NCBI GenBank assembly: GCA_002423495.1
Contig: DIWN01000058.1
Span: forward strand, 4,080-68,079
Origin: Anaerolineaceae bacterium UBA6105
GTDB taxonomy: Bacteria > Chloroflexota > Anaerolineae > Anaerolineales > Anaerolineaceae
Length of the DNA stretch: 64,000 bases
Direction: 5' to 3'
Below are positions 18,325 to 46,588 of this stretch, one piece after another. A program made the translations under genes and the position numbers. Each line of letters begins with the position of its first letter. The stretch's first letter is position 1. The notes under the pieces were generated by a model, which was given only the letters and a program-made list of their open reading frames with translations, was not told the DNA's origin and made no database searches.

Positions 18325-18331
18325 GAGAAAA

Positions 18332-24993: not shown

Positions 24994-25498
24994 CTTGGCC
25001 TGATTTCACTTCCGGATCTATTTCCGATCCATTTTTCTCTTTGATGATCATGTCCAGGAGCATCAGTCCGACGCCGATCGTGACGCAAGAATCAGCCACG
25101 TTGAAAATCGGGAATCTGCCCACCGCAATAAAATCGGTCACGAATCCCAGCGTAAACTGGTCTACCAGGTTTCCAAGCGCCCCACCCAACATCAGGCTCA
25201 AGGACACTTTAACCAACACGTCCTTTATTTCAGCTTTTTGATAAAAAACGATGATGAAGAGTACAATTGCGATCCTAACAATCGTTAGGATCGGACCGGC
25301 ATTCTGCAAAGTACCAAATGCCGCCCCACGATTTTGCCAGTACAAAAACCGGAAAAAATCCCCGATTGCCGGGATGGGTGACCAGGCTTCGCCTAAGGCG
25401 AGGTTCTGCCTAACCAGGGCTTTTGTGAGCTGATCCGCAACGATCACAGCCGCAGCAATCAGGAATAAAAGCCCATTATGCTTTAGGAATTTCTTCAC
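24986..25498 (-). CDS. lspA: lipoprotein signal peptidase II
   Basis: NRGAAFG and FNVADS motifs, four TM segments. Confidence 0.85.
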   Translation of the reverse strand: MKKFLKHNGLLFLIAAAVIVADQLTKALVRQNLALGEAWSPIPAIGDFFRFLYWQNRGAAFGTLQNAGPILTIVRIAIVLFIIVFYQKAEIKDVLVKVSLSLMLGGALGNLVDQFTLGFVTDFIAVGRFPIFNVADSCVTIGVGLMLLDMIIKEKNGSEIDPEVKSGQDA

Positions 25499-28400
25499 GC
25501 GCTCACTCCTTGCACGGTTTGCAGGGCAAAGTGTAATTCTTCTCCATCAAAAGCATCATGCGCCTGGGTCAGTCCATGCGGCAAGTCTTCATCCAGAACT
25601 GCCAGCGCCAAAGTTTCCGCGGCAATGTAGCTTTCATTCTGCTTCACGGCTTCACTTAAGGCCTCGCTGGCCTGGAAGTAAATCTTGATCCGGTCGGCGA
25701 TGTCCAGGCCGAGACTCTTGCGCTGATCCTGCACCCGGCGTACAAATTCCCGAGCCAGGCCTTCATAGAACAGCTCCTGGCTGATGGTGGTAACCAAGGC
25801 CGCCAGGTATGGACCATCCGTCGCGACGGCAAAACCTTCTTTTGCAGCGGCATGCACTTCCACTTCGTCCGGCAGTATCTCGTAGTGCTTGTCATCCACC
25901 TTGATCACCAGGTTCAAGCCGGCCAGCAATCTTTCAGCGCTTTCCTTTGCGGGCAAATCAAGGATAGCCTGCCGTACTTTTGGCAAGAGCCCCTTATACT
26001 TCTGACCCAATTGTTTTGGCAGTGGATTCAAGCTGTATTCAACAGCTTCTTCGCTGCCTCCCAAGGTCCTCACCTGCTTCACATTCAGTTCATCCTCGAG
26101 GATTTCCCTGAACTGATCCACCACTTCCATTTCATCTGCACTGCCAACAGCAAAGGCAACTTCCGAGAGCGGCTGGCGCACCTTGACGTTAGACTTGTTG
26201 CGTGCGGCATGCCCGAGCGAAGCGAGTTTCATCACAACCCCCATCTGGTGGTTGAGGGTTTCATCGATCATGCTTAGGTCAGCCTTTGGCCACTCAGCCA
26301 GATGCACGGAAATTGGCGCCTGGTCATTAGCAGAGCGCACCAGGTTCTGGTAGAGCGTCTCTGCCATGAAGGGCATCGAAGGCGCCAGCAGCTTGCTCAC
26401 GGTCACCAAAGCCCGATAAAGCGTCTCGTAGGCAGCTGCTTTATCAGCGTCCGATTCGCTTTTCCAAAAACGCCTTCGCGAGCGGCGCAAGTACCAGTTG
26501 GAGAGATTGTCCACAAAAGCCTCAATCGGGCGGGTCGCCCCAATCACGTCATAAGTCTCGTAGGCTTTGGTCACATCCCTTACCAACGTCTCTAAAGAAG
26601 AGAGCAGCCACCGGTCCAAATCTGAGAATTGGGGGATCACCGAAGAGTCAGGCGTCCAGTCATCCAGGTTGGCATAGGTCACAAAGAAGGAGTAGGTATT
26701 CCACAACGTCAACATGAAGCTGCGCACCACCTCCCCCACCAATTCCCTGCTGAAACGGCGTTCGTTGCCCGGAGGGCTGGAGGTGTAGAGATACCAGCGC
26801 ATCGCGTCGGCACCATAGCCGTCGATCACTTCCCAGGGGTCAACCACATTGCCCTTGTGTTTAGACATCTTCTGGCTTTCCCCATCCAGGATCAAGCCCA
26901 AGCAGATGACATTCTCGAAACAAAGATTGTCAAACACCAGCGTGCTGATCGCATGCAGGGAGTAGAACCAGCCGCGGGTCTGGTCAACCGCCTCACAGAT
27001 AAAATCAGCTGGAAACTGTTGCTTAAATTCATCCAGATTTTCAAAAGGATAATGCCACTGGGCAACTGGCATCGCGCCCGAGTCAAACCAGACGTCAATC
27101 AGCTCACTCACGCGGGTCATCCTGCCTTCTTTACACTTGGGGCAGTTAAAGTGCACATTGTCCACATAGGGTCGGTGCAGTTCGAGTTCGCTTTGGTCCT
27201 GCCCGGTCAGCTCGCTCAATTCCGCGACGGAACCGACACAGTGCTGATGCCCACAGCTTTCACAAACCCAAACCGGCAGCGGCGTGCCCCAGTAGCGGTC
27301 GCGCCCCAAAGCCCAGTCCACGTTGTTTTCAAGCCAGTTGCCAAAGCGTCCTTCCTTGATGTGCTCGGGCACCCAGTTGATCTCCCGGTTAAGTTCCACC
27401 ATACGTTCCTTGATCTTGCTGGTGCGGATGAACCAGGTGGATCTTGCCATGTATAAAAGCGGGGTGTCGCAGCGCCAGCAGAAGGGGTAAGTATGGGTTA
27501 CTGTTCCCCGATTGAAAAGCAGACCTCTTTGTTTCAAGTCCTCCATAATCAAGGGATCGGCATCTTTTACGAACATGCCAGCCCAAGGCGAAACCGCCGG
27601 TTTGAACTTGCCCTCATCATCGATCGTCAGCAAAACCGGCAGATCGTACACTTTAGATACTGCCATGTCGTCCATGCCAAACGCCGGCGCGATATGCACC
27701 AGCCCGGTACCGTCGCTGGTGGTGACGTAATCGGCGTTGACAACGTAGTGAGCTGGTTTGTCAGGCGGCAGGAAGGAATAGAGCGGAGCGTATTTCTTAC
27801 CCTCAAGCGCTTTGCCTTTCATGCTCTTGAGCACTTCCACCTTTTTGTCTCCGAAGACCAGCGGGACCAATTCCTTTGCCAGAATCAAGCGCTCATTCGC
27901 CTCACCTTCCACTCTGACCATGACGTAGTCCAGGTCAGGATGTGCTGCAACGGCGACATTGCCCGGCAGAGTCCAGGGTGTGGTAGTCCAGACCAGCAAA
28001 TAGGTGTTCGGTTCATCCACCAGAGGTAAACGCACCGTGATGCTCGGGTCAACCGCGTCGGCATAGCCTTGCGCAACTTCATGGTTTGAGAGCGGCGTGC
28101 CGCAGCGCGGGCAATATGGAACCACTTTGTAGCCCTGGTAGAGCAAGTCCTTATCCCAAATCTGGCGCAGCAACCACCAAACAGACTCGATGTAGGGGTT
28201 GGTGTACGTCACGTATGCCCGGCTCAGGTCCACCCAATAGGCGATCCTTTCGGTCAATTGCTCCCATTCCTGGATGCGCGAGAAAGCTGATTCGCGGCAC
28301 AGAGCATTGAATTTTTCGATGCCGTATTCTTCGATCTGGCTTTTCTCAGTAAAACCCAGCTTCTTTTCAACCTCGATTTCAACTGGCAGTCCGTGCGTGT

Positions 28401-28656
28401 CCCAACCACCGCGCCGGTCGACAAAGTAGCCTTGCATCGTGCGGAAGCGTGGGAACATGTCTTTGAAAGCGCGTGCCAAAACGTGATGCACGCCGGGTTT
28501 TCCATTGGCAGTCGGTGGGCCTTCAAACATCACATAAGGTTTGCGATCCTTGCGCTCGTCTGAGGATTTCTTGAAAATCTCGTTCGCCTGCCAAAAACGC
28601 AGGCGCGCCTCTTCCTCCTGCTGGATATTCAATCGCGATGACACTGGTTTGAACAT
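25495..28656 (-). CDS. ileS: isoleucyl-tRNA synthetase
   Basis: Full-length class I aaRS; KMSKHKGN (KMSKS loop), CP1 editing domain, Zn-type CxxC pairs. Confidence 0.95.
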   Translation of the reverse strand: MFKPVSSRLNIQQEEEARLRFWQANEIFKKSSDERKDRKPYVMFEGPPTANGKPGVHHVLARAFKDMFPRFRTMQGYFVDRRGGWDTHGLPVEIEVEKKLGFTEKSQIEEYGIEKFNALCRESAFSRIQEWEQLTERIAYWVDLSRAYVTYTNPYIESVWWLLRQIWDKDLLYQGYKVVPYCPRCGTPLSNHEVAQGYADAVDPSITVRLPLVDEPNTYLLVWTTTPWTLPGNVAVAAHPDLDYVMVRVEGEANERLILAKELVPLVFGDKKVEVLKSMKGKALEGKKYAPLYSFLPPDKPAHYVVNADYVTTSDGTGLVHIAPAFGMDDMAVSKVYDLPVLLTIDDEGKFKPAVSPWAGMFVKDADPLIMEDLKQRGLLFNRGTVTHTYPFCWRCDTPLLYMARSTWFIRTSKIKERMVELNREINWVPEHIKEGRFGNWLENNVDWALGRDRYWGTPLPVWVCESCGHQHCVGSVAELSELTGQDQSELELHRPYVDNVHFNCPKCKEGRMTRVSELIDVWFDSGAMPVAQWHYPFENLDEFKQQFPADFICEAVDQTRGWFYSLHAISTLVFDNLCFENVICLGLILDGESQKMSKHKGNVVDPWEVIDGYGADAMRWYLYTSSPPGNERRFSRELVGEVVRSFMLTLWNTYSFFVTYANLDDWTPDSSVIPQFSDLDRWLLSSLETLVRDVTKAYETYDVIGATRPIEAFVDNLSNWYLRRSRRRFWKSESDADKAAAYETLYRALVTVSKLLAPSMPFMAETLYQNLVRSANDQAPISVHLAEWPKADLSMIDETLNHQMGVVMKLASLGHAARNKSNVKVRQPLSEVAFAVGSADEMEVVDQFREILEDELNVKQVRTLGGSEEAVEYSLNPLPKQLGQKYKGLLPKVRQAILDLPAKESAERLLAGLNLVIKVDDKHYEILPDEVEVHAAAKEGFAVATDGPYLAALVTTISQELFYEGLAREFVRRVQDQRKSLGLDIADRIKIYFQASEALSEAVKQNESYIAAETLALAVLDEDLPHGLTQAHDAFDGEELHFALQTVQGVSA

Positions 28657-28690: not shown

Positions 28691-28727
28691 GAAAATAAAA
28701 AGGCTCGTCCCACTACAGGGACGAGCC
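28691..28727 (-). terminator. T-box-controlled intrinsic terminator
   Basis: GGCTCGTCCC-TGTAGT-GGGACGAGCC followed by TTTTTATTTT on the minus strand. Confidence 0.8.
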
Positions 28728-28953
28728 GAAACTCGCGGTACCACCCCGCTTCCCAGCCATGCTGAGCGCTTGTTGCATGTTTTTTAATCATGCACCCTCT
28801 GTAACGGAAGGGCTGTCCGGCGCGCTTACTATCGTTGAACGGGTTCAGCTTGCGGCTCTGGAAGGATTTTCGCACAGGAGGTTCTGCCCGGCTTCCACCA
28901 TCCCGGTTCGCTATCAGTCTGCCTGCAGTACTCGTTTCCGTCTATGCCGATCA
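28691..28953 (-). promoter_or_regulatory. T-box riboswitch leader of ileS
   Basis: Minus strand reads AGCGGGGTGGTACCGCGAG (T-box sequence), followed by a terminator. AGTA / GAAAATCC specifier-loop-like elements include AUC (28865-28867). Confidence 0.8.
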
Positions 28954-28960
28954 AAAAATA

Positions 28961-28989
28961 ATTATCTCATAGCACTAAAAGCTTGTCAA
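28961..28989 (-). promoter_or_regulatory. sigma-70 promoter of the ileS leader
   Basis: TTGACA-N17-GATAAT on the minus strand. Confidence 0.6.
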
Positions 28990-28999
28990 ACCTTGCGAT

Positions 29000-29025
29000 A
29001 AAAAAAAGACCTTCTTGCGAAGGTC
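29000..29025 (-). terminator. intrinsic terminator after tRNA-His
   Basis: GACCTTC-GCAA-GAAGGTC followed by T8 on the minus strand. Confidence 0.75.
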
Positions 29026-29028
29026 CTG

Positions 29029-29101
29029 GGTGCCTGGAGGGGGTCGAACCCTCAACATCTTCATCCACAGTGAAGTACTCTGCCATTGAGCTACAGGCAC
29101 C
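29029..29101 (-). tRNA. tRNA-His (anticodon GUG) with encoded G-1:C73, CCA not encoded
   Basis: The manual cloverleaf is G-GTGCCTG-TA-GCTC-AATGGCA-GAGT-A-CTTCA-CTGTGGA-TGAAG-ATGTT-GAGGG-TTCGACC-CCCTC-CAGGCAC-C. Confidence 0.9.
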
Positions 29102-30520: not shown

Positions 30521-30892
30521 ATGAAATTTTTGGATGTAATTGCTATTTGTGAAGGCACGCTCGTCACACCAGATGTAGACCAAGTTCCAGAAATCAAAGG
30601 CGGCTTTGCTGGCGATCTGATGAGTGATGTGCTTGCTTCGATCCAGTCTGAAGCGGTGCTTATAACTGGTCTCTGCAATCCCCAGGTTGTTCGCACAGCT
30701 TTAATTGCAGATGTCCGCTTGATCATTTTTGCGCGGGGAAAGAAACCTGGCAATGATATCCTCCATCTTGCAAAAGAGGAAAACCTACCTGTTGCTACTT
30801 CGCACCTGGGTCTCTACGAGATTTCAGGCCGGCTCTCCCAAGCCGGATTACCCAGCTGTGAAGTGGAATTGAATCTCTTTCCAAACGACTAG
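30521..30892 (+). CDS. DRTGG domain protein
   Basis: AGDLMSDVL...VLITGL...VVRTA pattern typical of DRTGG domains. Confidence 0.7.
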   Translation: MKFLDVIAICEGTLVTPDVDQVPEIKGGFAGDLMSDVLASIQSEAVLITGLCNPQVVRTALIADVRLIIFARGKKPGNDILHLAKEENLPVATSHLGLYEISGRLSQAGLPSCEVELNLFPND

Positions 30893-30898
30893 GCTTTA

Positions 30899-31849
30899 AT
30901 GAGCGACCAGGCTACTGTCTCCGATAAAAATGCTGGCATGATCACCAGGGTTGAGGAACTTGGCTATGAACTAAAAATCGGCCAGGTGATGACCACAAAG
31001 GTTGTCACACTCTCCCCTGAGACAACCATTCTTGAAGCGCTTGATGTGTTCAAACAACATCGCATCTCGGGCACTCCAGTTACGGTTGAAGGCGAACTTG
31101 TTGGCATCATTTCCACCGAAGACCTGATCCGTGCTCTAAGGGACGGGAGAATCGATCGCAGCGTCTCAACCTACATGACTAAAGATTTGATCACTGTCAA
31201 AGCCACAGACTACATTGTGGAAGCCCTGAAGGTATTTGCAAAAACAAAAGTCGGACGCTTGCCAGTTGTGAATGAGAACAACAAATTGATTGGGCTGATT
31301 ACCAAAGGAGATATTACCAACGGCTTGTTAACCGCCCTTCAACGGGACTATCAGGCTGAGGAAATTATCCGTTATCGCGCTTCACACCTGTTTGAGGACA
31401 TCGAATCCGACCGCACCAGCCTCATCCTGCGGTATCGCATCATCAAAGATGACTTTGTCCACGGTGGTGCAGCTTCCAACAACATCAAAAGAGCCCTCCT
31501 GCGCCTGGGCGCGAACCGACAGATCGCCAGAAAATGTGGAATTGCTGTATATGAATCTGAGATGAACCTGATCATCCACACCAACAACGGCGGCTTCCTT
31601 AGGGTCGAAATAGAGCCACACAAAATTACGATAGAAGCTTATGATGATGGACCCGGCATTGATGACGTCGAAAAAGCCTTAACCCCTGGATATTCCACCG
31701 CCACCGAAGAGATCCGCGACAAAGGCTTTGGGGCAGGTATGGGTTTGGTCAACATTCGCTCCTGTGTCGATGAAATGAGCCTCAAGTCCTCAAAGGAAAG
31801 CGGCACAAATCTATTTATGACCATGTATTTGGACAAACCCGGAAATTGA
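30899..31849 (+). CDS. CBS-pair protein fused to HATPase_c (RsbW/SpoIIAB-like serine kinase fold)
   Basis: Two CBS units (VMTTKVVTLSPE.., YMTKDLITVKAT..), then DDGPGI and GFGAGMGLVNI G-boxes. Confidence 0.75.
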   Translation: MSDQATVSDKNAGMITRVEELGYELKIGQVMTTKVVTLSPETTILEALDVFKQHRISGTPVTVEGELVGIISTEDLIRALRDGRIDRSVSTYMTKDLITVKATDYIVEALKVFAKTKVGRLPVVNENNKLIGLITKGDITNGLLTALQRDYQAEEIIRYRASHLFEDIESDRTSLILRYRIIKDDFVHGGAASNNIKRALLRLGANRQIARKCGIAVYESEMNLIIHTNNGGFLRVEIEPHKITIEAYDDGPGIDDVEKALTPGYSTATEEIRDKGFGAGMGLVNIRSCVDEMSLKSSKESGTNLFMTMYLDKPGN

Positions 31850-31862
31850 GGTCCGACGATCC

Positions 31863-32222
31863 ATGTGCTCACTCCAGACTATTTTAGACACCATCGAACT
31901 TCAAGTTCTGACAGAACCACTCGAGTACTCGCAAATTGAAATCACATCCGGCTACACTTCGGACCTTCTCAGTTGCGTAATGACTGGCGCCCTGGCTGAT
32001 GGTATTTGGGTCACTTTGATTGCCAACATCAACATTGTGGCGGTTGCTTCCTTGTTGGAAATTCCCGCCATCATCATCACAGAAAATGCTCAACCGGATG
32101 CAGCCGCCATTGCCCGCGCAAACCAGGAAGGCATCGTGCTGCTCTCCACGCCCGTTGGAAGTTACCAGATCGTTGGAAGACTCTGGGAACTGGGGATTAA
32201 AGATACTGATCCAAACCAATGA
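31863..32222 (+). CDS. DRTGG domain protein (second copy)
   Basis: TSDLLSCVM...IWVTLIANINIVAVASLLEIPAIIITE pattern. Confidence 0.7.
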   Translation: MCSLQTILDTIELQVLTEPLEYSQIEITSGYTSDLLSCVMTGALADGIWVTLIANINIVAVASLLEIPAIIITENAQPDAAAIARANQEGIVLLSTPVGSYQIVGRLWELGIKDTDPNQ

Positions 32223-32932
32223 AAAGCCTCAAGGCAGAACTCCATATCCACACCGTGCTCTCTCCCTGTGCCACGTTGGAAATGCTGCCACCTTTTATTG
32301 TCGAACGCGCCCTCGAAACCCACACACACCTGATTGCGATAACTGATCATAACGCCAGTGCCAACGTACCCGCCGTTATCAAAGCTGCAGAAGGCAGCGA
32401 GCTGACCGTCCTGCCCGGGATAGAGCTTACCACTGCAGAGGAAATTCACGTTGTATGCCTTTTTGATACGTACTCACAACTGGCAGAGTTCCAAAAAATT
32501 GTCGATCAAAATTTGCCGAATATTCCCAATAATCCTGACTTCTTTGGCATGCAGTTGATCGTGGACTCAGAGGGGAATTATGTCGATACAGAAGAACGCC
32601 TTCTCAGCAACGCCACCTTTCTCTCGATCAACGAAGCTCAACGGCATGTGCAGCGCCTGGGAGGTATCTTCATCCCTGCCCACGTTAATCGGGAGGAGAA
32701 TGGTCTCTTGCCCCGCCTCGGCGGCATTCCTCCTGAACTGAATTTATCGGTCCTCGAGATTTACGGCATTTCCAAAGCTGAAGCTATCCAACGCTATCCC
32801 TGCCTTAAAGATTACCATCTCATCCCCAGTTCCGATGCCCATGATCTTGACGCAATCTCGGGCGTCCTGCGGTTGGAATTGGAGGAAATTTCCGTTGCGG
32901 CATTACTTCAGGCCTTTCAAACCCAATATTGA
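32219..32932 (+). CDS. PHP-domain phosphoesterase
   Basis: ELHIHTVLSPCA and ITDHN metal-binding motifs. ATGA-type overlap upstream. Confidence 0.75.
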   Translation: MKSLKAELHIHTVLSPCATLEMLPPFIVERALETHTHLIAITDHNASANVPAVIKAAEGSELTVLPGIELTTAEEIHVVCLFDTYSQLAEFQKIVDQNLPNIPNNPDFFGMQLIVDSEGNYVDTEERLLSNATFLSINEAQRHVQRLGGIFIPAHVNREENGLLPRLGGIPPELNLSVLEIYGISKAEAIQRYPCLKDYHLIPSSDAHDLDAISGVLRLELEEISVAALLQAFQTQY

Positions 32933-32974
32933 TAAGAAATGAATTGCTATCCTCATTGTATTGAAGTAAAATCA

Positions 32975-32992
32975 TTGTGAAAATTTTTGCAT
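32975..32992 (+). promoter_or_regulatory. Rex-like operator candidate (one perfect half-site)
   Basis: TTGTGAAaattTTTGCAT against TTGTGAAnnnnTTCACAA (11 of 14 specified positions). Confidence 0.3.
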
Positions 32993-33187: not shown

Positions 33188-33679
33188 ATGGAAGAGAACC
33201 CAACCCTAACCAAGCCCACAACTGATGACCTCAAGCAGGAAATTTCATTAATCCTGCAAGGAATAAACAAGGACCGGGAGAATCTGATCCCAATTCTCCA
33301 CAAAATTACCCTACGATTTGGTTACATCTCCAGCCAGGCATTATACGAAGTTAGCGAACAAACAGCCATTCCACTTTCTGAAGTGTTCTCTGTCGCCACC
33401 TTCTACCGCATGCTCCCCACCGAGGAGCGCGGCAGGCATGTGATTCTCTTCTGCGAGAGCCTGCCTTGCCACGTTGTTGGAGGGCGGGAAGTATTGCAAG
33501 CCCTAAAGGCAGAACTCCAGCTTGAACCAGGCCAAACCAACCCGGATAAGAAGTGGACACTTCTGACCACCAGCTGCCTGGGTGTGTGCAATTTTGGTCC
33601 GGTCATCTCAATCGATGGCAACATCCACGGGAATCTAACACCGGAATCCCTTCCAGAAATCCTGAAAAAATACGAGTAG
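33188..33679 (+). CDS. NuoE/HoxE/HydC-like [2Fe-2S] subunit, copy 1
   Basis: CESLPCHV...TSCLGVCNFGPV thioredoxin-like 2Fe-2S motif. Confidence 0.85.
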   Translation: MEENPTLTKPTTDDLKQEISLILQGINKDRENLIPILHKITLRFGYISSQALYEVSEQTAIPLSEVFSVATFYRMLPTEERGRHVILFCESLPCHVVGGREVLQALKAELQLEPGQTNPDKKWTLLTTSCLGVCNFGPVISIDGNIHGNLTPESLPEILKKYE

Positions 33680-33687
33680 GAGCCGCA

Positions 33688-35304
33688 ATGAAAACAGTAC
33701 GTTCAATGGTTTTAGTATCGAACGATATCAAAAGCAAAGCCAACGCCTCGCAAGAAGTCATTGATGCTTTCAACCTGGCAATCAAAAAGCTGGATCTCGC
33801 CGATGAAGTGGCAGTTTCCACCATTCCTGAGGTTGGTACGGTCCGAAGCTTACCTTTGGTGGTGATTTTCCCGGAAGCCACGGTGTATGCTCCAGTGAAA
33901 CCCGAGGATGTTCCTCACCTGGTTGAAGAACATCTCTATAAAGGCCGTGAAGTTCCGGATCTGAAGGTGAAAGACGCTGACACTTTACGAAAAGTTGCCT
34001 GGCTCACCCAGCGGAAAGGAACCCTGCCTGCTGAGAATAAAATCGTTCTAAAAAATGTTGGCCTAATAGATCCTGAAAGCATTGATGAGTTCTTTGCGTA
34101 CGAAGGTGGACAGGCTTTTGCCACAGCCCTCCAGATGACCCCAGAGCTAGTTGTTGAGGTTATCAAAGCCTCTGGTTTGCGTGGTCGCGGAGGGGCTGGC
34201 TTCCCTGCCGGCATCAAATGGGATTCTGTTCGCAGAACGCCCGGCAAAAAGAAGTATGTGATTTGTAACGCCGATGAAAGCGAACCGGGCACCTTCAAGG
34301 ACCGCATCATCATGGAAGGCGATCCATTCACCATCATAGAGGCAATGTTGATTGCAGGCTATGCAGTCGGCGCAGATGAAGGGTACATCTATATCCGCGG
34401 AGAGTACCAACTTGCGCTCGAACGTGTGCAAAAAGCTATCCAACAAGCCCGTGAATACGGCGTGCTGGGAAAAGACATTTTTGGCTCAGGTTTTGACTTC
34501 GATCTTCACATTCATGCTGGTGCAGGTGCTTACATCTGTGGCGAAGAAACTGCCTTGCTCGAGTCTATCGAAGGCGGCCGCGGTGAGCCGCGTGTCAAGC
34601 CCCCATATCCCACCACTTCTGGTCTTTGGGCTATGCCAACACTGATCAACAACGTAGAAACTTTTGCCAATATCCCACCGATCATCCTCAACGGCGCAGA
34701 TTGGTTTAAATCCTTTGGCACACCTTCAAGCCCTGGCACCAAGGTCTACACCATCTTGGGCAATGTCAACAATACAGGATTGATTGAAGTTCCGATGGGG
34801 ATCACTCTACGTGAAGTCATCAACATTTACGGCAAAGGAACCAAGGGCGGGCAGTTTAAATTTGCCCAGACTGGTGGTTCCAGTGGATCGATCATTCCTG
34901 CTGCGCTGCAAGATACCCCAATGGACTTTGACTCTTTCAGAAAAGTTGGCGTAGCTTTGGGCTCTGGCGCGCTATTGATCTGCAATGATTCCAACTGCAT
35001 TGTTGACTCAGTACGTGTTCTAACCCGCTTCTTCCAGGAGGAATGCTGCGGAAAATGCGTTCCATGTCGCGTTGGCACGGATCAAGCCTGGAAGGTCCTG
35101 ACCGACATCTCAGAAGGGCGCGGAAAAATTGAAGATATCGCCCAATTGGAATGGCTCTGCAAAGGCATGGAAGAGTTTTCCAACTGCGGCTTGGGTCAGA
35201 CAGCAGGAACACCGATCAAAAATATGCTCGACCACTTCCGTGCGGAAGTTGAAGCCCATATCAAACTTGGTGTCTGCCCCACTGGCGTTTGCCCCATGAG
35301 CTGA
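33688..35304 (+). CDS. NuoF/HoxF-like FMN/NAD(H) subunit, copy 1, without C-terminal ferredoxin domain
   Basis: GRGGAGFPAGIKW, CNADESEPGTFKDR, ECCGKCVPCRVGT, NCGLGQTA. Start at ATG 33688 (AGGAG upstream) rather than track start 33553. Confidence 0.85.
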   Translation: MKTVRSMVLVSNDIKSKANASQEVIDAFNLAIKKLDLADEVAVSTIPEVGTVRSLPLVVIFPEATVYAPVKPEDVPHLVEEHLYKGREVPDLKVKDADTLRKVAWLTQRKGTLPAENKIVLKNVGLIDPESIDEFFAYEGGQAFATALQMTPELVVEVIKASGLRGRGGAGFPAGIKWDSVRRTPGKKKYVICNADESEPGTFKDRIIMEGDPFTIIEAMLIAGYAVGADEGYIYIRGEYQLALERVQKAIQQAREYGVLGKDIFGSGFDFDLHIHAGAGAYICGEETALLESIEGGRGEPRVKPPYPTTSGLWAMPTLINNVETFANIPPIILNGADWFKSFGTPSSPGTKVYTILGNVNNTGLIEVPMGITLREVINIYGKGTKGGQFKFAQTGGSSGSIIPAALQDTPMDFDSFRKVGVALGSGALLICNDSNCIVDSVRVLTRFFQEECCGKCVPCRVGTDQAWKVLTDISEGRGKIEDIAQLEWLCKGMEEFSNCGLGQTAGTPIKNMLDHFRAEVEAHIKLGVCPTGVCPMS

Positions 35305-35392
35305 AATTGAAAAGCTCTGATTAGAAAGACTCTGCGGGTTGGTCTGCAAGAGGCAAACTGACCTGCTTCATTTTATAAAGTAACTTAGAAGG

Positions 35393-35421
35393 TTGACCAA
35401 ACTACTTGAATTGAGTACACT
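35393..35421 (+). promoter_or_regulatory. sigma-70-like promoter candidate for the hydrogenase operon
   Basis: TTGACC-N17-TACACT. Confidence 0.45.
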
Positions 35422-35423
35422 AC

Positions 35424-35441
35424 GTGTAATATTTTTCACAA
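35424..35441 (+). promoter_or_regulatory. Rex-like operator candidate immediately after the -10
   Basis: GTGTAATatttTTCACAA against TTGTGAAnnnnTTCACAA (11 of 14; the right half is perfect). Confidence 0.4.
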
Positions 35442-35479
35442 AGGTAACAAGCCTTTGAGATATAGGAGCATGTAACAAA

Positions 35480-35992
35480 ATGACATCAACACCCATGCAG
35501 CTGGATCCCCTCGAGAATCCCAAAATGAGAGAAGTTATCGATAATACCATCTCAGAATTCGGAGATCAAAATGGCGCTTTGATGGTAGTTCTCAACCACC
35601 TCCAGGAGAGAGTGGGCTTTATCACCAAACCAATGCAAGCTTACGTTGCCGAAAAACTGGGTGTTCCAGTGAGCAAGGTCCATGGTGTGGTATCTTTTTA
35701 TTCTTTCTTCACCACAGAACCCCGCGGTAAACATGTTGTAAAATTCTGCATAGGTACTGCCTGCTACGTTGGCGGAGCTTCCCAATTGATTGATAAAGCC
35801 AAGCAAGTGCTGGCCATCGAACCCGGTCAAACTACTCCAGACGGGCTGATCACCCTCGAAGTCTGCCGTTGTGTGGGAGCTTGCAGCCAGGCACCTGTTG
35901 TGGTGGTGGACGAAGCCAATCATGGGCGAGTGAAGCCTTCTCAATTCGGTAAGGTTTTGACGGATATCCAAAAAAGCGAGGCGGCAGTTTGA
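35480..35992 (+). CDS. NuoE/HoxE/HydC-like [2Fe-2S] subunit, copy 2
   Basis: FCIGTACYV...EVCRCVGACSQAPV motif. Confidence 0.85.
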   Translation: MTSTPMQLDPLENPKMREVIDNTISEFGDQNGALMVVLNHLQERVGFITKPMQAYVAEKLGVPVSKVHGVVSFYSFFTTEPRGKHVVKFCIGTACYVGGASQLIDKAKQVLAIEPGQTTPDGLITLEVCRCVGACSQAPVVVVDEANHGRVKPSQFGKVLTDIQKSEAAV

Positions 35993-36567
35993 GAGAACTC
36001 TCGCTTCACCTTCTTGACATTGCCGAAAACAGCATCTCTGCTGGGGCAACAAGAATCGTGATTTCCGTGCATGAAGATCTGGTGGCTGACGAGCTGTGGC
36101 TTGCGGTCACCGACAACGGCAAGGGTATGTCCCCTGAGATGGTCGCCAACGTACTGGACCCCTTTTTCACCACCCGAACTACTCGTAAAGTCGGCCTGGG
36201 CATTCCTCTGCTTAAACAAGCAGCTGAAGCATGTAATGGATTCCTAACCGTGGAATCAGAGTTGGGTAAAGGTACAAAACTCACTACTAAGTTCCAACAC
36301 AGCCACATCGACCGCATGCCTTTGGGAAACCTCGAAGACACGATCATCACCCTGCTTTTAGGCACCCCTTCGGTAAACTGGGTTTTCGATTATCAATATA
36401 ATGACCAAAGCTTTGAATTTGACGATACTGAATTTAAGGAAGCTCTGGGCGATCTGCCCTTGAGTGATTTCCGTGTAATTGAATTTTTATCCAACACCAT
36501 CATCCATGGTATTACAAACGCAAAAAACATCACCACCGAAAAAGGAGTCGTGTATGCCAACCATTAA
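35989..36567 (+). CDS. stand-alone HATPase_c (histidine-kinase-like ATPase) protein embedded in the hydrogenase operon
   Basis: N-box HLLDIAENSISAG, G1 DNGKGM, G2 GLGIPL. No HisKA domain. TTG start overlaps the upstream stop. Confidence 0.75.
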   Translation: MRELSLHLLDIAENSISAGATRIVISVHEDLVADELWLAVTDNGKGMSPEMVANVLDPFFTTRTTRKVGLGIPLLKQAAEACNGFLTVESELGKGTKLTTKFQHSHIDRMPLGNLEDTIITLLLGTPSVNWVFDYQYNDQSFEFDDTEFKEALGDLPLSDFRVIEFLSNTIIHGITNAKNITTEKGVVYANH

Positions 36568-36922
36568 ATCTCTCGATGACCTCAAAAGACTGCGTGAGGA
36601 AGCCCAGAAAGTCAAGGAACTACGGGACCAGACAGGCAAAACTCAAATTGTAGTCGGAATGGGAACTATCGGTATCGCCGCTGGTGCCCGTGAAACTTTG
36701 AAGGCAATCCTCAACTATATCGAGGATCATCACCTTCCCGATATCATTTTGCGCCAGACCGGCAACATTGGTCTCGGAGGTCAGGACCCGGTTGTGCAAG
36801 TGATCCTTCCTGGTGCTGAAACTGTAACTTATGGCAAAGTTACTCCTGCTATCGCTGCCAGGATTATGGATGAACATGTCGTCAAGGGAAACATCGTCCA
36901 GGAATTCCGAATAGAAGCCTGA
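36554..36922 (+). CDS. thioredoxin-like [2Fe-2S]-ferredoxin-fold protein (HydD-like position) with no cysteines
   Basis: IVVGMGTIGIAAGA...RQTGNIGLGGQDPVV aligns by eye to the VCxGTCGxAAGA...TGCxGxCxxEP pattern. The 122-aa product has zero Cys. AAGGAG lies before ATG 36554. Confidence 0.65.
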   Translation: MPTIKSLDDLKRLREEAQKVKELRDQTGKTQIVVGMGTIGIAAGARETLKAILNYIEDHHLPDIILRQTGNIGLGGQDPVVQVILPGAETVTYGKVTPAIAARIMDEHVVKGNIVQEFRIEA

Positions 36923-36958
36923 GTTTGGGCTTAATCAATTAGGAAGGTAAGTATAGAT

Positions 36959-38743
36959 ATGGCGTACTATCGTTCAACCGTGCTTGTCTCTATGGATCCT
37001 GCTTGTATTGACAAAGGGGCGTTAGCTGTCAAGGAACAACTGATCAACGAGTTGGCAAACCTTAACCTGTCGGAAGAAGTCCAGGTTATGGATATCCCCA
37101 GAATTGGAGACCCCGAAACTGAAGGTCCTGATATTCTGGTCTACCCTGAAGGTAGCCACTACATCCAATTGACCACAGCAACCGTTGGTCCCATTGTGAT
37201 TGAACACTTCATCAAAGGTCGCGAGCTTCAACAATATAAAGCTCAAATGCGCGATGTCACCGATGAGGAGCTCCGTGAACCCAAAGACAAGGAAATTCGT
37301 GTCATCCTTGAAAACATTGGAAAGATTGATCCTCGAAATATTGAGGATTACATTGCGGTCGATGGCTACCAAGCTCTGGCAAAGGTCCTTGGTGAGATGA
37401 GTCCGGAAGAAGTTATCCAGACTATTCTCGATTCCAAATTGCGTGGTCGCGGTGGCGCTGGTTTTCCAACCGGTTTAAAGTGGAAATTTGCCCGGCAATC
37501 ACCGGATACTCCAAAATACATGGTTTGCAACGCTGACGAAGGCGACCCCGGCGCGTTCATGAACCGTAAGGTTCTGGAAGGCGATCCTCACTCAGTACTC
37601 GAAGGCATGACTATCGGCGCGTACGCCGTAGGCGCCAACCAGGGCTATGTTTACTGCCGTGCTGAATATCCCATCGCCGTCAGCACGCTCAACACAGCCA
37701 TCGAACAAGCCAGGGAATACGGCCTGCTCGGCAAAGATATCCTCGGATCCGGTTTTGATTTTGATATTGAAGTCCGCATGGGTGCAGGCGCGTTTGTTTG
37801 CGGTGAAGAAACCGCATTGCTGGCTTCCATTGAAGGCGCTCGCGGTGAACCTCGCGTTCGCCCTCCCTTCCCTGCCTCAAAAGGCCTGTGGGGCAAACCC
37901 ACCAATATCAACAATGTAGAAACTTATGCTAACGTTCCAAAGATCATCCATCGCGGTCTTGAGTGGTACACCAGCATGGGTTCCGAGAAAAGCAAGGGCA
38001 CAAAAACATTTGCCCTCGCCGGCGATCTCGTCCACACTGGTCTGATTGAAGTACCTTTCGGCACGACGCTGCGCGAGATTATCAACGACATCGGCGGCGG
38101 CATCAAAGATGGAAAAGCCTTCAAGGCCGTCCAAACTGGTGGTCCAATGGGTGGATGTTTGCCCGAAGAGTTCCTTGATCTTCCTGTGGATTACGAAACG
38201 CTCGGTGCTGCTGGCTCCATCATGGGCTCGGGCGGGATGATCGTGATGGACGAAGAAACTTGCATGGTGGACATTGCCCGTTTCTTCATGGAATTCACTC
38301 AGGATGAATCCTGCGGCAAGTGCGTTCCCTGCCGTGTTGGCACGCGCCGTCTACTCGAGATCCTTGAGCGCATTTGCGCTGGCAAGGGCGTCCCCGAAGA
38401 CATCCCTCTGCTCAGGCAGCTTTGCGACGAGATCATCCAGGATAGCCTTTGCGGTCTGGGGCAAGGCGCGCCAAATCCAGTCATATCCACGATGAAACAC
38501 TTCATGGATGAGTACGAGGCGCACATCTACGAGAAGCGCTGCCCCGCAAAGGTCTGCCGAAGCCTGATCACCTTCGAAATTCTGGCAGATAATTGCACCG
38601 GCTGCACCGTTTGCGCGCGCAACTGCCCGGTCAACGCAATTAGTGGTGAGAGAAAACAAACCCACGTAATTGATACAGAGCTTTGTATACGCTGCGGTAT
38701 CTGCAAGCAAGTTTGTAACTTTGATGCGGTTGTCATCAATTAA
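36959..38743 (+). CDS. NuoF/HoxF/HydB-like FMN/NAD(H) subunit, copy 2, with C-terminal 2x[4Fe-4S] ferredoxin domain
   Basis: GRGGAGFPTGLKW, CNADEGDPGAFMNR, ESCGKCVPCRVGT, LCGLGQGAP, then CTGCTVCARNCP and CIRCGICKQVCNF. Confidence 0.9.
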   Translation: MAYYRSTVLVSMDPACIDKGALAVKEQLINELANLNLSEEVQVMDIPRIGDPETEGPDILVYPEGSHYIQLTTATVGPIVIEHFIKGRELQQYKAQMRDVTDEELREPKDKEIRVILENIGKIDPRNIEDYIAVDGYQALAKVLGEMSPEEVIQTILDSKLRGRGGAGFPTGLKWKFARQSPDTPKYMVCNADEGDPGAFMNRKVLEGDPHSVLEGMTIGAYAVGANQGYVYCRAEYPIAVSTLNTAIEQAREYGLLGKDILGSGFDFDIEVRMGAGAFVCGEETALLASIEGARGEPRVRPPFPASKGLWGKPTNINNVETYANVPKIIHRGLEWYTSMGSEKSKGTKTFALAGDLVHTGLIEVPFGTTLREIINDIGGGIKDGKAFKAVQTGGPMGGCLPEEFLDLPVDYETLGAAGSIMGSGGMIVMDEETCMVDIARFFMEFTQDESCGKCVPCRVGTRRLLEILERICAGKGVPEDIPLLRQLCDEIIQDSLCGLGQGAPNPVISTMKHFMDEYEAHIYEKRCPAKVCRSLITFEILADNCTGCTVCARNCPVNAISGERKQTHVIDTELCIRCGICKQVCNFDAVVIN

Positions 38744-40692: not shown

Positions 40693-40729
40693 CCGATTAA
40701 ACGAATAAATGCAGGTTGAAAGGAAACGT

Positions 40730-41272
40730 ATGACAAAACCAAAAGTTGCATCAGATTGGCTCGCTGGCTGTGCCGGTTGCCACATGTCTTTCCTTGATAT
40801 GGACGAACGTATCATTGAACTGCTCAAACTGGTCGATTTACGCTCTACGCCGATCACCGATCTCAAAGAACCGGATGAGGAAGGTGTGGATGTCGGCATT
40901 CTTGAAGGCGGTATTACAAACACCTACAATGAAGAAGTCGCGATCAAGATGCGCGAACGCTGCAAGATACTGGTTGCACTTGGTGACTGCGCTGTGTTTG
41001 GTGGTGTACCTGCCATGCGCAATTTCCCCGGTGCCGAGGAAGCCCTCAAACGCGCTTACATCGAAACCGAAAGCACCGATGAAAGCGGCATGATCCCCAA
41101 CGATCCGGAACTTTCCACACCTGTGCATGTTCGACCGGTCAGCGATGTCGTCAAAGTTGATGTATTCCTGCCCGGCTGTGCGCCAAGCGCAGACGCGATT
41201 TTTTATGTTTTATCTGAATTAGCCCAGGGCAGAATGCCTAAAGTCGACGGCGAATTCAATAACTGGCATTAG
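40730..41272 (+). CDS. [NiFe]-hydrogenase small subunit (HoxY/HydS-like, NuoB fold)
   Basis: WLAGCAGCHMSFLD, ALGDCAVFGG, LPGCAP. AGGAAA lies before ATG 40730. Confidence 0.85.
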   Translation: MTKPKVASDWLAGCAGCHMSFLDMDERIIELLKLVDLRSTPITDLKEPDEEGVDVGILEGGITNTYNEEVAIKMRERCKILVALGDCAVFGGVPAMRNFPGAEEALKRAYIETESTDESGMIPNDPELSTPVHVRPVSDVVKVDVFLPGCAPSADAIFYVLSELAQGRMPKVDGEFNNWH

Positions 41273-41281: not shown

Positions 41282-42706
41282 ATGGGTACACAAAAAATTA
41301 CTATCGAACCAGTCACCCGCATCGAAGGTCACGCCAAAGTGACCGTCCACATGAATGAAGATGGCTCAGTTGAGCACGCTTACTTCCATGTAAACGAATT
41401 CCGGGGCTTCGAAAAATTCTGTGAAGGTCGCCTCGTCACCGAGATGCAGCAGATCACTCCCCGTATCTGCGGCATTTGCCCTGTCAGTCACCACCTTGCT
41501 GCAGCTAAAGCCGGTGATGTCGTCCTGGGCTGCCCGCCACCCCGCCCTGCAAGTTTACTTCGCGAACTCATGCACATGGGTCAGATCATTCAGAGTCACG
41601 GTATGCACTTCTTTGAGCTCGCCGGACCTGATCTGATTCTTGGTTTCGACGCCGATCCCGCCATCCGCAATGTGGTTGGGCTGATCCAGGCTGACCCTGA
41701 CCTTACCGTCAAGGCAGTTCGCCTGCGCAAGTTCGGTCAAGCGATTATTTCTGAGTTGGGTGAACGCTCGATCCACCCTACCTTCGCAATTCCTGGCGGT
41801 GTAAACCGCACTTTGACCGCTGAAGGTCGCGACCGCATCCTGGCTGATCTCGATGCCCAAATTGAGACCACCAAAATTGGTATCAAGATCGTCAAAGACT
41901 GGGCAGAAGCCAACCAAGAAACAGTTGATAAGTTTGCTGTCTTCCCCACCGGTTATCTCGGTCTGATCACCCCTCGCAAAGGCCTCGAGCTTTATGATGG
42001 CAATATCCGCCTTAAGAGCCGCACTGGTGAAGAGTTGGAGATCTTCAGTGCTCAAAATTATCTCGATTACATAGCCGAGCACGTTGAGCCCTGGTCTTAT
42101 CTGAAATTCCCCTATTACAAGAAACTTGGCTACCCGGGTGGTGTCTATCGCGTGGGTCCGCTCGGTCGGCTCAACATGATTGAACAGATCGAAACCCCGA
42201 TGGCGAATGAAGAAATGAAGATCTTCAAAGCCATCAACAATGGCGCGCCGGTTGAGAACACGCTTTATTATCACTACGCCCGCATGATCGAAGCTCTATT
42301 TGCAGCTGAACGGGTACGTGTGCTGCTTGACGATCCGGATATTCTGAGCAATGACATCCTGAACACACGCCAGAATCCAGTTGGGCACGGCGTTGGCGTC
42401 ATCGAAGCCCCACGCGGCACCCTGATCCACGACTACACTGCCAACGAAAACGGCCAGCTTACCAAGGTGAACCTGATCGTCTCAACCGGGCATAACAACT
42501 ATGCCATGAGCAAGGCTGTTGATATGGTTGCCAAGGAATACGTCCACGGTCCTGATGTTAAAGAAGGCATGCTCAACCGGGTCGAACACGCCATTCGCGC
42601 CCACGACCCCTGCCTCTCCTGCTCCACCCATGCAGTTGGGCAAATGCCCCTGGAGATCACGATCTTCGACCACCAGGGCAACCTGACCCAGACCCTGCGG
42701 CGGTAG
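41282..42706 (+). CDS. [NiFe]-hydrogenase large subunit (HoxH/HydL-like)
   Basis: RIEGH, L1 [11 protein letters not shown]2 [10 protein letters not shown], followed by a 23-aa C-terminal extension. Confidence 0.9.
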
Positions 42707-42726
42707 ATCGAACCAAACCAAGTTAT

Positions 42727-42758
42727 ACCTCCCCGCTGAACGGGGAGGTGTTTTTTTT
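42727..42758 (+). terminator. strong intrinsic terminator between the large subunit and the maturation genes
   Basis: ACCTCCCCG-CTGAA-CGGGGAGGT then G and T8. Confidence 0.75.
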
Positions 42759-42770: not shown

Positions 42771-43262
42771 ATGCGACAAAAAACGCTCATAATTGCCTAC
42801 GGAAACCGCGACCGTGAAGATGATGGCGCTGGTTGGCACATCCTCGATAAACTTGCGCAAAGGCTTGGGCTTGAAACACCGCAATTTCCGGGAGACAAGA
42901 TTACAACCCCCGATGGCGAGCTGACCTTGCTCTACCTTTTCCAGCTTTTACCTGAAATGGCGGAGGATATTGCTGATTTTGATGAGCTTGTTTTTATCGA
43001 CGCTCACAATTCCCCCAGTTTACCAAATCTGATCTTTGAGGAAGTATCCCCTGACCGAACACATTCCGCTTTCACTCACCATATGAACCCGGGTGAGCTG
43101 CTTGCCATTGCGCAAGTACTTGAAAAAAGATTACCTGAAGCCTGGATGCTGAGTGTACGTGGTTTTTCATTCCGTTTTGAACCATCCCTTTCCTCCAAGA
43201 TGACTGAGTTGGTCGACCAGGCCTTCTCACACCTCCAATCGCATCTTTTCCGGGCGGTATAA
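42771..43262 (+). CDS. hydrogenase maturation endopeptidase (HoxW/HycI family)
   Basis: LIIAYGNRDREDDGAGWH motif. Confidence 0.8.
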   Translation: MRQKTLIIAYGNRDREDDGAGWHILDKLAQRLGLETPQFPGDKITTPDGELTLLYLFQLLPEMAEDIADFDELVFIDAHNSPSLPNLIFEEVSPDRTHSAFTHHMNPGELLAIAQVLEKRLPEAWMLSVRGFSFRFEPSLSSKMTELVDQAFSHLQSHLFRAV

Positions 43263-43269: not shown

Positions 43270-43623
43270 ATGCACGAATTGGCAATTACCGAAAGCATCC
43301 TGTCTATTGCCGATCAGGCTGCAAAGGAAAACAACGGCACAAAAGTCACGGACATTTACCTGATACTTGGACAACTATCCTCGATCGTCGATGATTCAGT
43401 CCAATTTTATTGGGACCATATCAGCCTCGGAACCGTTTGTGAAGGCGCTGTACTTCACTTTGAACGCCGCCCTGCTATGTTGCGCTGTAAAAGCTGTAAT
43501 CACCAGTATCCATTGGGTGAAATCCTTCAGACTTGCCCAAACTGCCAGAGTCCTGACGTCTTCATTGAAGCTGGCGAAGAAATGCTGGTGCACCATATCG
43601 ACATACTACGAGAGGAACCTTAA
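43270..43623 (+). CDS. hypA: hydrogenase nickel incorporation protein HypA
   Basis: MHELAITESIL N-terminus; CKSC...CPNC zinc site. Confidence 0.9.
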   Translation: MHELAITESILSIADQAAKENNGTKVTDIYLILGQLSSIVDDSVQFYWDHISLGTVCEGAVLHFERRPAMLRCKSCNHQYPLGEILQTCPNCQSPDVFIEAGEEMLVHHIDILREEP

Positions 43624-44282: not shown

Positions 44283-44288
44283 GGACCT

Positions 44289-46586: not shown

Positions 46587-46588
46587 AT

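Follow-up and report, generated by a model that had tools for sequence, protein, structure and literature searches.

Why should one hydrogenase locus hold two different sets of flavin subunits? The question is raised by contig DIWN01000058.1 of Anaerolineaceae bacterium UBA6105 (Chloroflexota; assembly GCA_002423495.1), of which a stretch of 64,000 nt, called the window here, was analysed. In the window, two NuoE/NuoF-type sets lie in tandem before a [NiFe] hydrogenase, and all genes of the cluster are on the + strand. Set 1 is a pair, E1 (NuoE-like) and F1 (NuoF-like). Set 2 has E2, a stand-alone HATPase protein, a small protein termed FdxL, and F2. The NuoG-like scaffold G and the hydrogenase subunits HoxY and HoxH follow. 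The gene models for both sets and the hydrogenase are borne out by the open reading frame (ORF) list and by Pfam (coordinates in Table 1). Sequence comparison gives good support to E2 and F2 as a bifurcating-type core and to E1 and F1 as a non-bifurcating, NADH-type diaphorase. As an answer to the question, we give about an even chance to an arrangement in which E1F1 (NADH-only) and E2F2 (NADH plus ferredoxin) dock alternatively on the same NuoG-like scaffold, thus sharing one catalytic module.

The two kinds of flavoprotein can be told apart by published motifs. In bifurcating beta subunits the NADH site shows A/E..M, the flavin mononucleotide (FMN) site Phe, and the SLBB region GGPSG, whereas non-bifurcating ones have T/S..K/S/A, Tyr, no GGPSG, and fewer Fe-S domains (Losey 2020, PMC7311640; Feng 2022, PMC8880783). 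F1 orthologues with 63-98% identity were retrieved from 80 Anaerolineae loci in a one-genome-per-species scan, and the window proteins plus FocA and FdhA were mapped onto these loci. F2 reads AFM, F, and GGPMG at the diagnostic positions, with Pro retained and Ser replaced by Met. The pattern AFM, F, GGP[MAL]G is present in all 69 copies, except that five have AFA for AFM. F1 reads TFK, Y, and GGSSG, and this triad is found by regular expression in 75 of 81 copies and, in addition, in every aligned case. F1 agrees with each of the sequence criteria of Losey 2020 for non-bifurcating NADH-dependent beta subunits, its Fe-S sites being only B1 and possibly B2. HydB proteins without the B3 and B4 clusters are non-bifurcating by experiment: in S. 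wolfei and S. aciditrophicus they use NADH only and produce H2 at low H2 pressure (Losey 2017, 2020).

The cluster ligands of F2 follow the bifurcating pattern with one departure. Its best match among solved structures is Acetomicrobium mobile NiFe-HydB (7t2r_B), over the full length and with 782 bits. The [4Fe-4S] cluster B1 has its cysteines at C452, C455, C458, and C498, and the B2 site is complete (C435, C473, H522, C528, and C533, against C438, C476, H525, C531, and C536 in A. mobile). A C-terminal 2x[4Fe-4S] domain (B3, B4) with 8 Cys gives Fer4 matches at residues 541-590. The tail of 66-67 residues, with 10 Cys (11 in one), of which 8 lie beyond two B2 Cys, is found in 66/66 complete orthologues. 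The initial annotation had taken this extra domain as the mark of a BfuB/HydB-like subunit, and the flavin-site motifs agree with it. The departure is in the N-terminal thioredoxin-like domain (36959-37260), which keeps its fold and has lost the B5 ligands; only 1 Cys is left in the first 100 residues, and orthologues have 1 or 3 Cys in this domain. FdxL shows a comparable loss. It is homologous to the N-terminal thioredoxin-like [2Fe-2S] domain of HydB/NfnB (E = 8e-14), with the Cys ligands changed to I, N, and G. Among 70 loci, FdxL has no Cys in 27, one in 6, and three (MGTCG...GCIGLC) in 37. Because the protein is well conserved even when Cys-less, a non-redox role is suggested where the cluster has been lost. 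FdxL accompanies E1F1 rather than set 2 in four loci (L024, L037, L060, and L074). Set 2 had been described as a NuoE, a HATPase, a ferredoxin-fold protein, and a NuoF with a C-terminal 2x[4Fe-4S] domain; three of these components stand, and the fourth is better called a Cys-less homologue of a thioredoxin-like domain.

F1 lacks what F2 has at its C-terminus. Its best match among solved structures is again 7t2r_B, but only to residue 537 (557 bits), and it also matches the solved FdsGBA structures 6tg9 and 6vw7. Translation starts at the ATG 8 nt past the E1 stop, not at the GTG at 33553. E1 and F1 are adjacent in every locus examined, with a gap of 9-26 nt across orthologues; the exception is L038, in which the aligned gap is 94 nt. 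No Fer4 domain in F1 is matched by Pfam. The protein ends in CPTGVCPMS, 3 residues beyond the last B2 Cys, and all 82 orthologues that can be read to the C-terminus end 9-25 residues past the B2 motif, without a B3/B4 ferredoxin-binding domain. The view of set 1 as a bare NuoE and NuoF pair with this end holds; its final C-x4-C, formerly assigned to the N3-type cluster region, has its counterpart in two of the ligands that form the B2 Cys/His site in A. mobile HydB, outside the N3 cluster. The B2-type site of F1 reads C, S, H, C, C, and the second position is S, T, or A among orthologues. That position is variable in true Bfu proteins too, being Cys or Thr (ligand assignments of Feng et al. 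2022). The N-terminal thioredoxin-like domain of F1 (33688-33990) is retained without the [2Fe-2S] Cys of B5 (0 Cys in 77/80 orthologues). The [2Fe-2S] ligands of E1, at residues 89, 94, 130, and 134, are retained as C-x4-C...C-x3-C in 81/81 orthologues. The F1 reading frame is intact in 80/80 fetched species loci, and since the FMN/NADH motifs and the B1 [4Fe-4S] ligands are all kept at 63-98% identity across 80 species, F1 is considered a working protein.

The two sets are old, functionally differentiated paralogues. F1 and F2 share 46% identity over 538 residues (E = 7e-174), which bears out the paralogy of the two NuoF cores that had been seen by eye and marks it as old rather than recent; E1 and E2 share 35%. 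In a neighbour-joining tree of 169 homologues, drawn without support values or named references, F1 forms a long-branched monophyletic clade that joins short TFK-type proteins and is not sister to F2. A recent tandem duplication was rejected on the basis of these identities and this placement. The idea that F1 is a C-terminally truncated F2 was rejected as well, because the non-bifurcating motif triad runs throughout F1. A survey of 150 representatives of 50%-identity clusters included 52 of the non-bifurcating type; the C-terminal domain is present in none of the 52, and B2-type ligands are kept in 10. F1 is thus a member of a recognisable though minority class. No close F1 relative outside the clade is present in the representative library, where the top match has 49% identity, and cluster look-ups on the nearest non-Anaerolineae relatives return only the generic labels 'NuoF' or 'HndC'. 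F1 of the window is 98% identical to the copy in an Anaerolineaceae metagenome-assembled genome (MAG) from an anaerobic membrane bioreactor.

The catalytic unit that follows the two sets is seemingly of the NiFe-HydABCSL (Bfu) kind and not a classical Hox enzyme. The best solved-structure match of HoxH is A. mobile HydL (7t2r_D, 573 bits), compared with 387 bits to HoxH of the H. thermoluteolus soluble hydrogenase (5xf9_D). The N-terminal part of G has [2Fe-2S] and [4Fe-4S] domains and best matches A. mobile HydA (7t2r_A, 290 bits) over residues 2-340. Residues 275-603 match the Pfam Molybdopterin model, and like NuoG and the formate dehydrogenase FdhA, G has a molybdopterin-oxidoreductase-like C-terminal half. 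This half is 26-34% identical to the neighbouring FdhA of relatives, and G may have descended from a formate dehydrogenase subunit with loss of the cofactor. Since gene order and structure matches agree, set 2 together with G-HoxYH is regarded as an enzyme of the NiFe-HydABCSL type with lineage-specific departures.

How the sets are combined with catalytic genes can be read from the related loci. Of 72 informative loci, 70 have both sets; nine more have too little upstream sequence on the contig for a decision. Of the two flavoproteins, F2 is the upstream one in 56 loci and F1 in 14, and the set that adjoins G varies accordingly: it is F2 in the window clade and F1 in most other loci. E1F1 is found 40-120 nt upstream of G(-HoxYH) in about 47 loci, with no FdhA in between, and immediately upstream of FocA-FdhA in about 13. 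The catalytic genes after the flavin sets are G-HoxYH alone in most loci, FocA-FdhA and then G-HoxYH in Thermanaerothrix and Bellilinea, and FdhA without HoxYH in L017, L018, L026, and L040. The same modules are present in cultured relatives such as Thermanaerothrix daxensis, which has FocA-FdhA in addition, Bellilinea, and Levilinea. FdhA of the relatives bears a NuoG-like N-terminus. This additional 'G-like' gene was considered as an [FeFe] hydrogenase and rejected: it encodes a 920-residue formate dehydrogenase alpha subunit and is preceded by FocA. The possibility that set 1 would be found with a different enzyme and never with hydrogenases is not what the relatives display.

A few loci depart from the common layout. 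Only L037 and L060 have enough flank and yet no set 2. L060 has FdxL-E1-F1-FocA-FdhA behind unrelated genes, with no set 2 within 5.8 kb upstream. L037 has the same order as far as FocA, but a phage-type integrase gene (12757-13704) stands where FdhA is expected. L074 has FdxL-E1-F1-G-HoxY, with only about 1 kb visible upstream. From the arrangements in L060 and L074, it follows that E1F1 can be the sole input module beside a NuoG-like catalytic subunit. In L052 and L056, the latter from an Anaerolinea thermophila MAG, both sets are present yet there is no G-HoxYH or FdhA within 10 kb (11600-21600); in L056, the flavin sets are directly followed by a small ORF and hyp genes. Six Leptolinea-like loci (L030, L031, L034, L042, L047, and L053) have a third pair, E3-F3, directly before FdhA and after HoxW (about 16480-18610 onward). 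F3 is about 70% identical to F2, with the C-terminal 2x[4Fe-4S] domain and without the N-terminal thioredoxin-like domain. E3-F3 with FdhA looks like a dedicated Fdh-Bfu, which brings the NuoEF-type sets of such a locus to three. L007 has an insertion of about 1.8 kb (7706-9504) that parts PHP from E1; this insertion and the integrase in L037 are signs that the locus is a rearrangement hotspot.

The promoter regions bear on whether the two sets are expressed together. The spacer between F1 and E2 (35305-35479) is 175 nt long and, as had been proposed, carries promoter-like signals: a -35/-10 pair at 35393-35421, then a palindrome at 35424-35441. In the window clade the order is GTTGACCAA, about 15-16 nt, TA[C/A]ACT, 2 nt, and TTGTAA-N6-TTCACAA. 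The core blocks (GTTGACCAA, the -10 hexamer, and the palindrome) are kept in 13/13 loci of the clade, with proteins diverged to about 70% identity, and because of this conservation the signals are more than chance. The palindrome resembles the operator of Rex, an NADH/NAD+-sensing repressor that controls hydrogenase genes in Caldicellulosiruptor. The consensus is TTGTGAA-W4-TTCACAA, and 15-17 of its 18 positions are matched, with 3 mismatches in the window and 1-2 in relatives; the left half-site here is TTGTAA instead of TTGTGAA. The palindrome overlaps the start of the E2 transcription unit and marks operon starts in related loci. A scan of all fetched loci that allowed at most 2 mismatches gave 51 Rex-box-like matches. 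They lie just upstream of E2 in 33 loci (20 of 50 PHP-E2 junctions and 13 of 15 F1-E2 junctions) and upstream of the DRTGG cassette in 12, whereas none is found at 56 F2-E1, 47 F1-G, or 13 F1-FocA junctions. A search with a Rex query sequence found no Rex homologue in the window or the fetched loci.

At the F2-E1 junction of most relatives there is no such operator and no usable spacer, and the spacers are as short as 24-40 nt in some. A single operon that is led by E2 and covers both sets and the catalytic genes is therefore probable in most species, and the expectation that separate promoters bring separate regulation finds no support as a general rule. In the window clade, E1F1 seems to have moved ahead of the E2 promoter and to have a weaker promoter-like site with a degenerate box. 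The two promoter regions of the window share only about 50% identity, too little for a claim that the promoter was duplicated. An Rfam scan of the spacers gave no RNA element; a T-box and a tRNA were found only elsewhere in the window.

Based on these observations, the two sets could work as follows. One [NiFe] catalytic unit, HoxY/HoxH on G, would be served by two different NAD(H)-linked electron-input modules. E2 and F2 would be the BfuBC bifurcating core, which with G-HoxYH would couple NADH and reduced ferredoxin to H2, or the reverse, with ferredoxin contacting the C-terminal 2x[4Fe-4S] domain of F2. E1 and F1 would be a non-bifurcating diaphorase of the NuoEF/HoxEF kind, without the ferredoxin-contacting domain, and would dock on the same NuoG-like N-terminal domain, that of G here and that of FdhA in relatives. 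The enzyme fed by E1F1 would carry out simple NADH-to-H2 (or formate) transfer, workable only at low H2 or formate pressure. Both modules would be expressed together under an NADH-responsive Rex-like operator. As a result, the cell would hold two enzyme populations with a common catalytic module, and the NADH/NAD+ ratio, the ferredoxin redox state, and H2 pressure would split the flux between them. We infer the docking of both modules on G, their substrate specificity, and this physiological rationale. Cultured Anaerolineae are fermenters, and their growth is helped by hydrogen-consuming partners.

Several observations weigh against alternative docking on a shared scaffold. F2 is devoid of the B5 ligands, and the Bfu literature treats the B1-B5 cluster set as invariant; the same lack shows that a conserved lineage can do without B5. 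In its C-terminal half, G resembles NuoG and Fdh and departs from A. mobile HydA. F1 is not a textbook non-bifurcating subunit because it keeps a B2-type Cys/His site, stated to be absent from non-bifurcating homologues (Schut et al. 2022). FdhA has its own F2-like pair in six loci, and flavin modules can therefore be dedicated rather than shared. What alternative docking explains least well is the near-universal co-retention of the two sets whichever catalytic gene follows, including in L052 and L056, where none is adjacent. Because of this pattern, an obligate two-module complex or a stand-alone function also fits. In the former, which we regard as unlikely, both sets would be parts of a single heteromeric enzyme of fixed composition, such as a mixed dimer of pentamers with an E1F1 half and an E2F2 half or a seven-subunit complex, that could toggle or combine NADH-only and NADH plus ferredoxin coupling. 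Besides the co-retention, the likely co-transcription in most species and the structure of A. mobile NiFe-HydABCSL, itself a dimer of pentamers joined via HydB and HydL, speak for such an enzyme. However, E1F1 occurs without a nearby set 2 in L060 and L037, in solved homologues each NuoG-like subunit has a single NuoF/NuoE site and electrons do not pass between the halves of the dimer, and the order of the sets relative to G is not constant. An extended form of this idea is a 'gearbox', an (E1F1-G-YH)(E2F2-G-YH) dimer or an enzyme with both modules on shared scaffolds, in which the [NiFe] hydrogenase or formate dehydrogenase would switch its coupling or link NADH, a second pyridine nucleotide, and ferredoxin. 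We judge it quite unlikely, and we know of no built-in device of this kind in any Bfu or Hox enzyme.

The co-retention in L052 and L056, with neither G-HoxYH nor FdhA nearby, is also what a function without any NuoG-like subunit would predict. E1F1 and E2F2 would then act by themselves as a pyridine-nucleotide/ferredoxin oxidoreductase or a transhydrogenase, in which one flavoprotein might, for example, use NADPH and the other NADH plus ferredoxin; in a variant, E1F1 would be a redox sensor for the HATPase/CBS/PHP regulators. Bfu enzymes without BfuA ('Type 4') have been proposed in the literature, and kinase-like and CBS proteins are always adjacent. Even so, this is decidedly improbable: no known electron path joins two NuoF B1 clusters directly, the sequences give no hint of NADP specificity, for which no dedicated check was made, and catalytic partners may sit elsewhere in those genomes, with hyp genes still present in L056. 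A different partner for set 1 in this genome is somewhat unlikely. In that case E1F1 would serve an FdhA encoded elsewhere, or an 11-subunit complex I without its own NuoEFG, and its position would be a syntenic legacy. The loci with E1F1 directly before FocA-FdhA agree with this, as does the persistence of E1F1 with FdhA but no HoxYH in L060 and the four loci named above. Moreover, the E-F-FdhA order mirrors the NAD-dependent FdsGBA enzymes matched by F1, and in the window clade E1F1 has a promoter-like site of its own and is separated from G by set 2. On the other hand, no FdhA or FocA was found within the 64-kb window, E1F1 stands immediately upstream of G-HoxYH in 47 loci, and in the six loci with E3-F3 it is this F2-like pair that adjoins FdhA while E1F1 stays with G-HoxYH. 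The initial annotation had named both alternative flavin modules on one [NiFe] dimer and another partner for set 1; the comparison lends support to each and is proof of neither. That set 1 is a decaying duplicate without present function is hardly to be credited. F1 does evolve faster (within-clade distances of 0.25-0.42, against 0.11-0.36 for F2) and has lost the C-terminal domain and the N-terminal cluster ligands, but its intact frames, uniform ends, and retained B1, FMN/NADH, and E1 Cys positions argue otherwise, and an invariant non-bifurcating triad is unlike random decay.

Alternative docking of the two modules on one scaffold, if true, would have consequences beyond this locus. The two sets would be a matched pair for testing which features matter for bifurcation (the C-terminal domain, AFM/F/GGPxG, and the B2 site), and the cause of flavin-site bifurcation is debated. 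It would account for the ability of semi-syntrophic Anaerolineae to get rid of NADH whether H2 or formate pressure is low or high, and it would widen the range of NiFe-Bfu enzymes to Chloroflexota. Bifurcating and non-bifurcating enzymes have so far been treated as separate, each with its own catalytic subunit; the two Bfu sub-types are already known from one genome, as separate complete clusters. Here the pairing is side by side and has been retained through the diversification of a whole class of fermenters abundant in anaerobic digesters and sediments. In the searchable literature, which is limited, we found no account of a catalytic module that has flavin modules of both kinds beside it, and none, for Anaerolineae, of NiFe-Bfu enzymes or of two NuoEF sets in a hydrogenase locus.

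Table 1. Features of the hydrogenase cluster and its upstream cassette, in window coordinates
Feature	Position	Strand	Basis and remarks
DRTGG-domain protein, first gene of the upstream four-gene cassette	30521-30892	+	PF07085; syntenic in at least 61 Anaerolineae loci
Two-CBS and HATPase_c protein, putative nucleotide-sensing kinase-like regulator	30899-31849	+	PF00571 twice, PF02518/PF13581; synteny kept
Second DRTGG / HPr-kinase-N-like protein	31863-32222	+	PF07085, PF02603
PHP-domain phosphoesterase-like protein, end of the upstream cassette	32219-32932	+	PF02811; always before the first flavin set
Promoter-like site TTGCTA-17-TAAAAT, then degenerate Rex-box-like TTGTGAAAATTTTTGCAT, upstream of E1	32944-32992	+	Weak call; partly kept in closest relatives only
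E1, NuoE/HydC-like [2Fe-2S] subunit, set 1	33188-33679	+	PF01257, 8e-42
F1, NuoF-like flavoprotein, probably of non-bifurcating type, set 1	33688-35304	+	Nuo51 FMN, SLBB, and NADH_4Fe-4S domains
Terminator-like hairpin 3' of F1, weak	35350-35369	+	Seen only in the window and nearest relative; doubtful
Promoter-like TTGACC-17-TACACT, then Rex-box-like palindrome GTGTAATATTTTTCACAA, 56 nt before E2	35393-35441	+	Conserved in the window clade
E2, NuoE/HydC-like [2Fe-2S] subunit (BfuC), set 2	35480-35992	+	PF01257, 6.6e-45; Cys ligands retained
Stand-alone HATPase_c protein, at the position of A. mobile 'HisK'	35989-36567	+	PF02518
FdxL, HydD/HndB-like thioredoxin-fold protein, 122 residues, Cys-less	36554-36922	+	No Pfam match; homology to NfnB/HydB N-terminal domain
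F2, BfuB/HydB-type flavoprotein, set 2	36959-38743	+	PF01512, PF10589, Fer4; 782 bits to 7t2r_B
G, NuoG-like Fe-S scaffold (BfuA/HydA position), 642 residues	38764-40692	+	Pfam; 7t2r_A for residues 2-340 only
HoxY/HydS, [NiFe] small subunit; start may be 40730	40709-41272	+	PF01058; alternative start from the gene call in L001
HoxH/HydL, [NiFe] large subunit	41282-42706	+	PF00374
Strong intrinsic terminator 3' of HoxH	42725-42751	+	11-bp stem with 7 GC pairs, then T8
Putative maturation endopeptidase, HoxW/HydP position	42771-43262	+	Assigned by conserved position
hypA, hypB, hypF, hypC, hypD, and hypE maturation genes	43270-49007	+	Pfam

The neighbouring genes complete the picture of the window. 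At E <= 0.1, Pfam gives no match for the product of 42771-43262, which carries a GN..DDG-like motif that we take to be of the endopeptidase type. The cassette of DRTGG, CBS-CBS-HATPase, DRTGG, and PHP genes (30521-32932) lies between hisS and the first NuoE gene in essentially every locus and is probably a nucleotide- or redox-responsive regulatory unit. On the - strand at 28714-29100, a tRNA-His(GTG) gene lies directly downstream of hisS, and a T-box leader precedes an isoleucyl-tRNA synthetase gene (25495-28656) with 80.7 bits, below the Rfam gathering score of 93. A second redox cluster at 9527-19315 encodes a tungsten-type aldehyde:ferredoxin oxidoreductase (9527-11413), an MvhD/FlpD-polyferredoxin fusion (12584-14470), several Fer4 proteins, and an FAD/NAD-binding DHOD-B-like protein (17467-18324); these proteins are possible ferredoxin-linked partners of the Bfu enzyme. 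At 1118-9228 there is a 1781-residue TPR-repeat protein, then a 922-residue ORF without a Pfam match.

Among known systems, the group 3d [NiFe] enzyme HoxEFUYH is mirrored by the E1-F1-G-HoxY-HoxH order of most Anaerolineae, with F1 as a plain NAD(H) flavoprotein. However, E1 and E2 score 120 and 155 bits on the NCBIfam HoxE model (cut-off 224) and G 222 bits on the HoxU model (cut-off 333), all below the curated cut-offs; G has 642 residues and a molybdopterin-like domain, compared with 238 positions in the HoxU model and 242 residues in the solved chain; and HoxH of the window resembles A. mobile HydL far more than it does the solved NAD-reducing soluble hydrogenase. The E1-F1-FocA-FdhA genes of relatives have an FdsGBA-like order, whereas the window itself is without FdhA. 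Some relatives combine FdhA and a hydrogenase behind shared flavin modules, as does HytA-E/FdhA of Clostridium autoethanogenum, which differs in its [FeFe] site and in having just one NuoF-type subunit. None of the searchable papers describes a complex in which two different NuoF-type subunits are present.

S. wolfei Hyd1ABC and S. aciditrophicus HydAB (Losey et al. 2017, 2020) are the systems nearest to set 1. Like their beta subunits, F1 has T..K and Tyr and is without GGPSG and additional Fe-S domains. Both systems are [FeFe] hydrogenases that produce H2 with NADH as the only donor when H2 pressure is low, and each has an alpha subunit and an operon to itself, whereas the non-bifurcating pair of the window shares its locus, and probably its [NiFe] catalytic module, with a bifurcating pair. 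F1 differs from their beta subunits also in keeping a degenerate N-terminal thioredoxin-like domain and a B2-type Cys/His site.

The closest counterpart of set 2 and the hydrogenase is A. mobile NiFe-HydABCSL, a Type 3 Bfu enzyme (PDB 7T2R/7T30; Feng et al. 2022). Its genes run in the order hydC-hisK-hydD-hydB-hydA-hydS-hydL, as deduced from their numbers (Anamo_1681 to 1675), and E2-HATPase-FdxL-F2-G-HoxY-HoxH matches this order. The purified subunits are Anamo_1675-1678 and 1681; the products of hisK, which sits between hydC and hydB, and of hydD and hydP of the operon are not in the holoenzyme. In a survey of Bfu enzymes, NiFe-Bfu is given for Synergistetes and Halorhabdus, and Anaerolineae are not mentioned. 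The A. mobile enzyme provides the best solved-structure match for F2, the N-terminal half of G, and HoxH, and F2 shares its B1, B2, and B3/B4 ligands and flavin-site motifs. The two differ in the [2Fe-2S] Cys of B5 and of the HydD cluster, which F2 and FdxL of the window lack, and in the scaffold: A. mobile HydA is [FeFe]-HydA-like without the H cluster, whereas the C-terminal half of G is of the NuoG/formate dehydrogenase kind. Above all, the Anaerolineae locus adds to the A. mobile plan the non-bifurcating-type pair E1F1.

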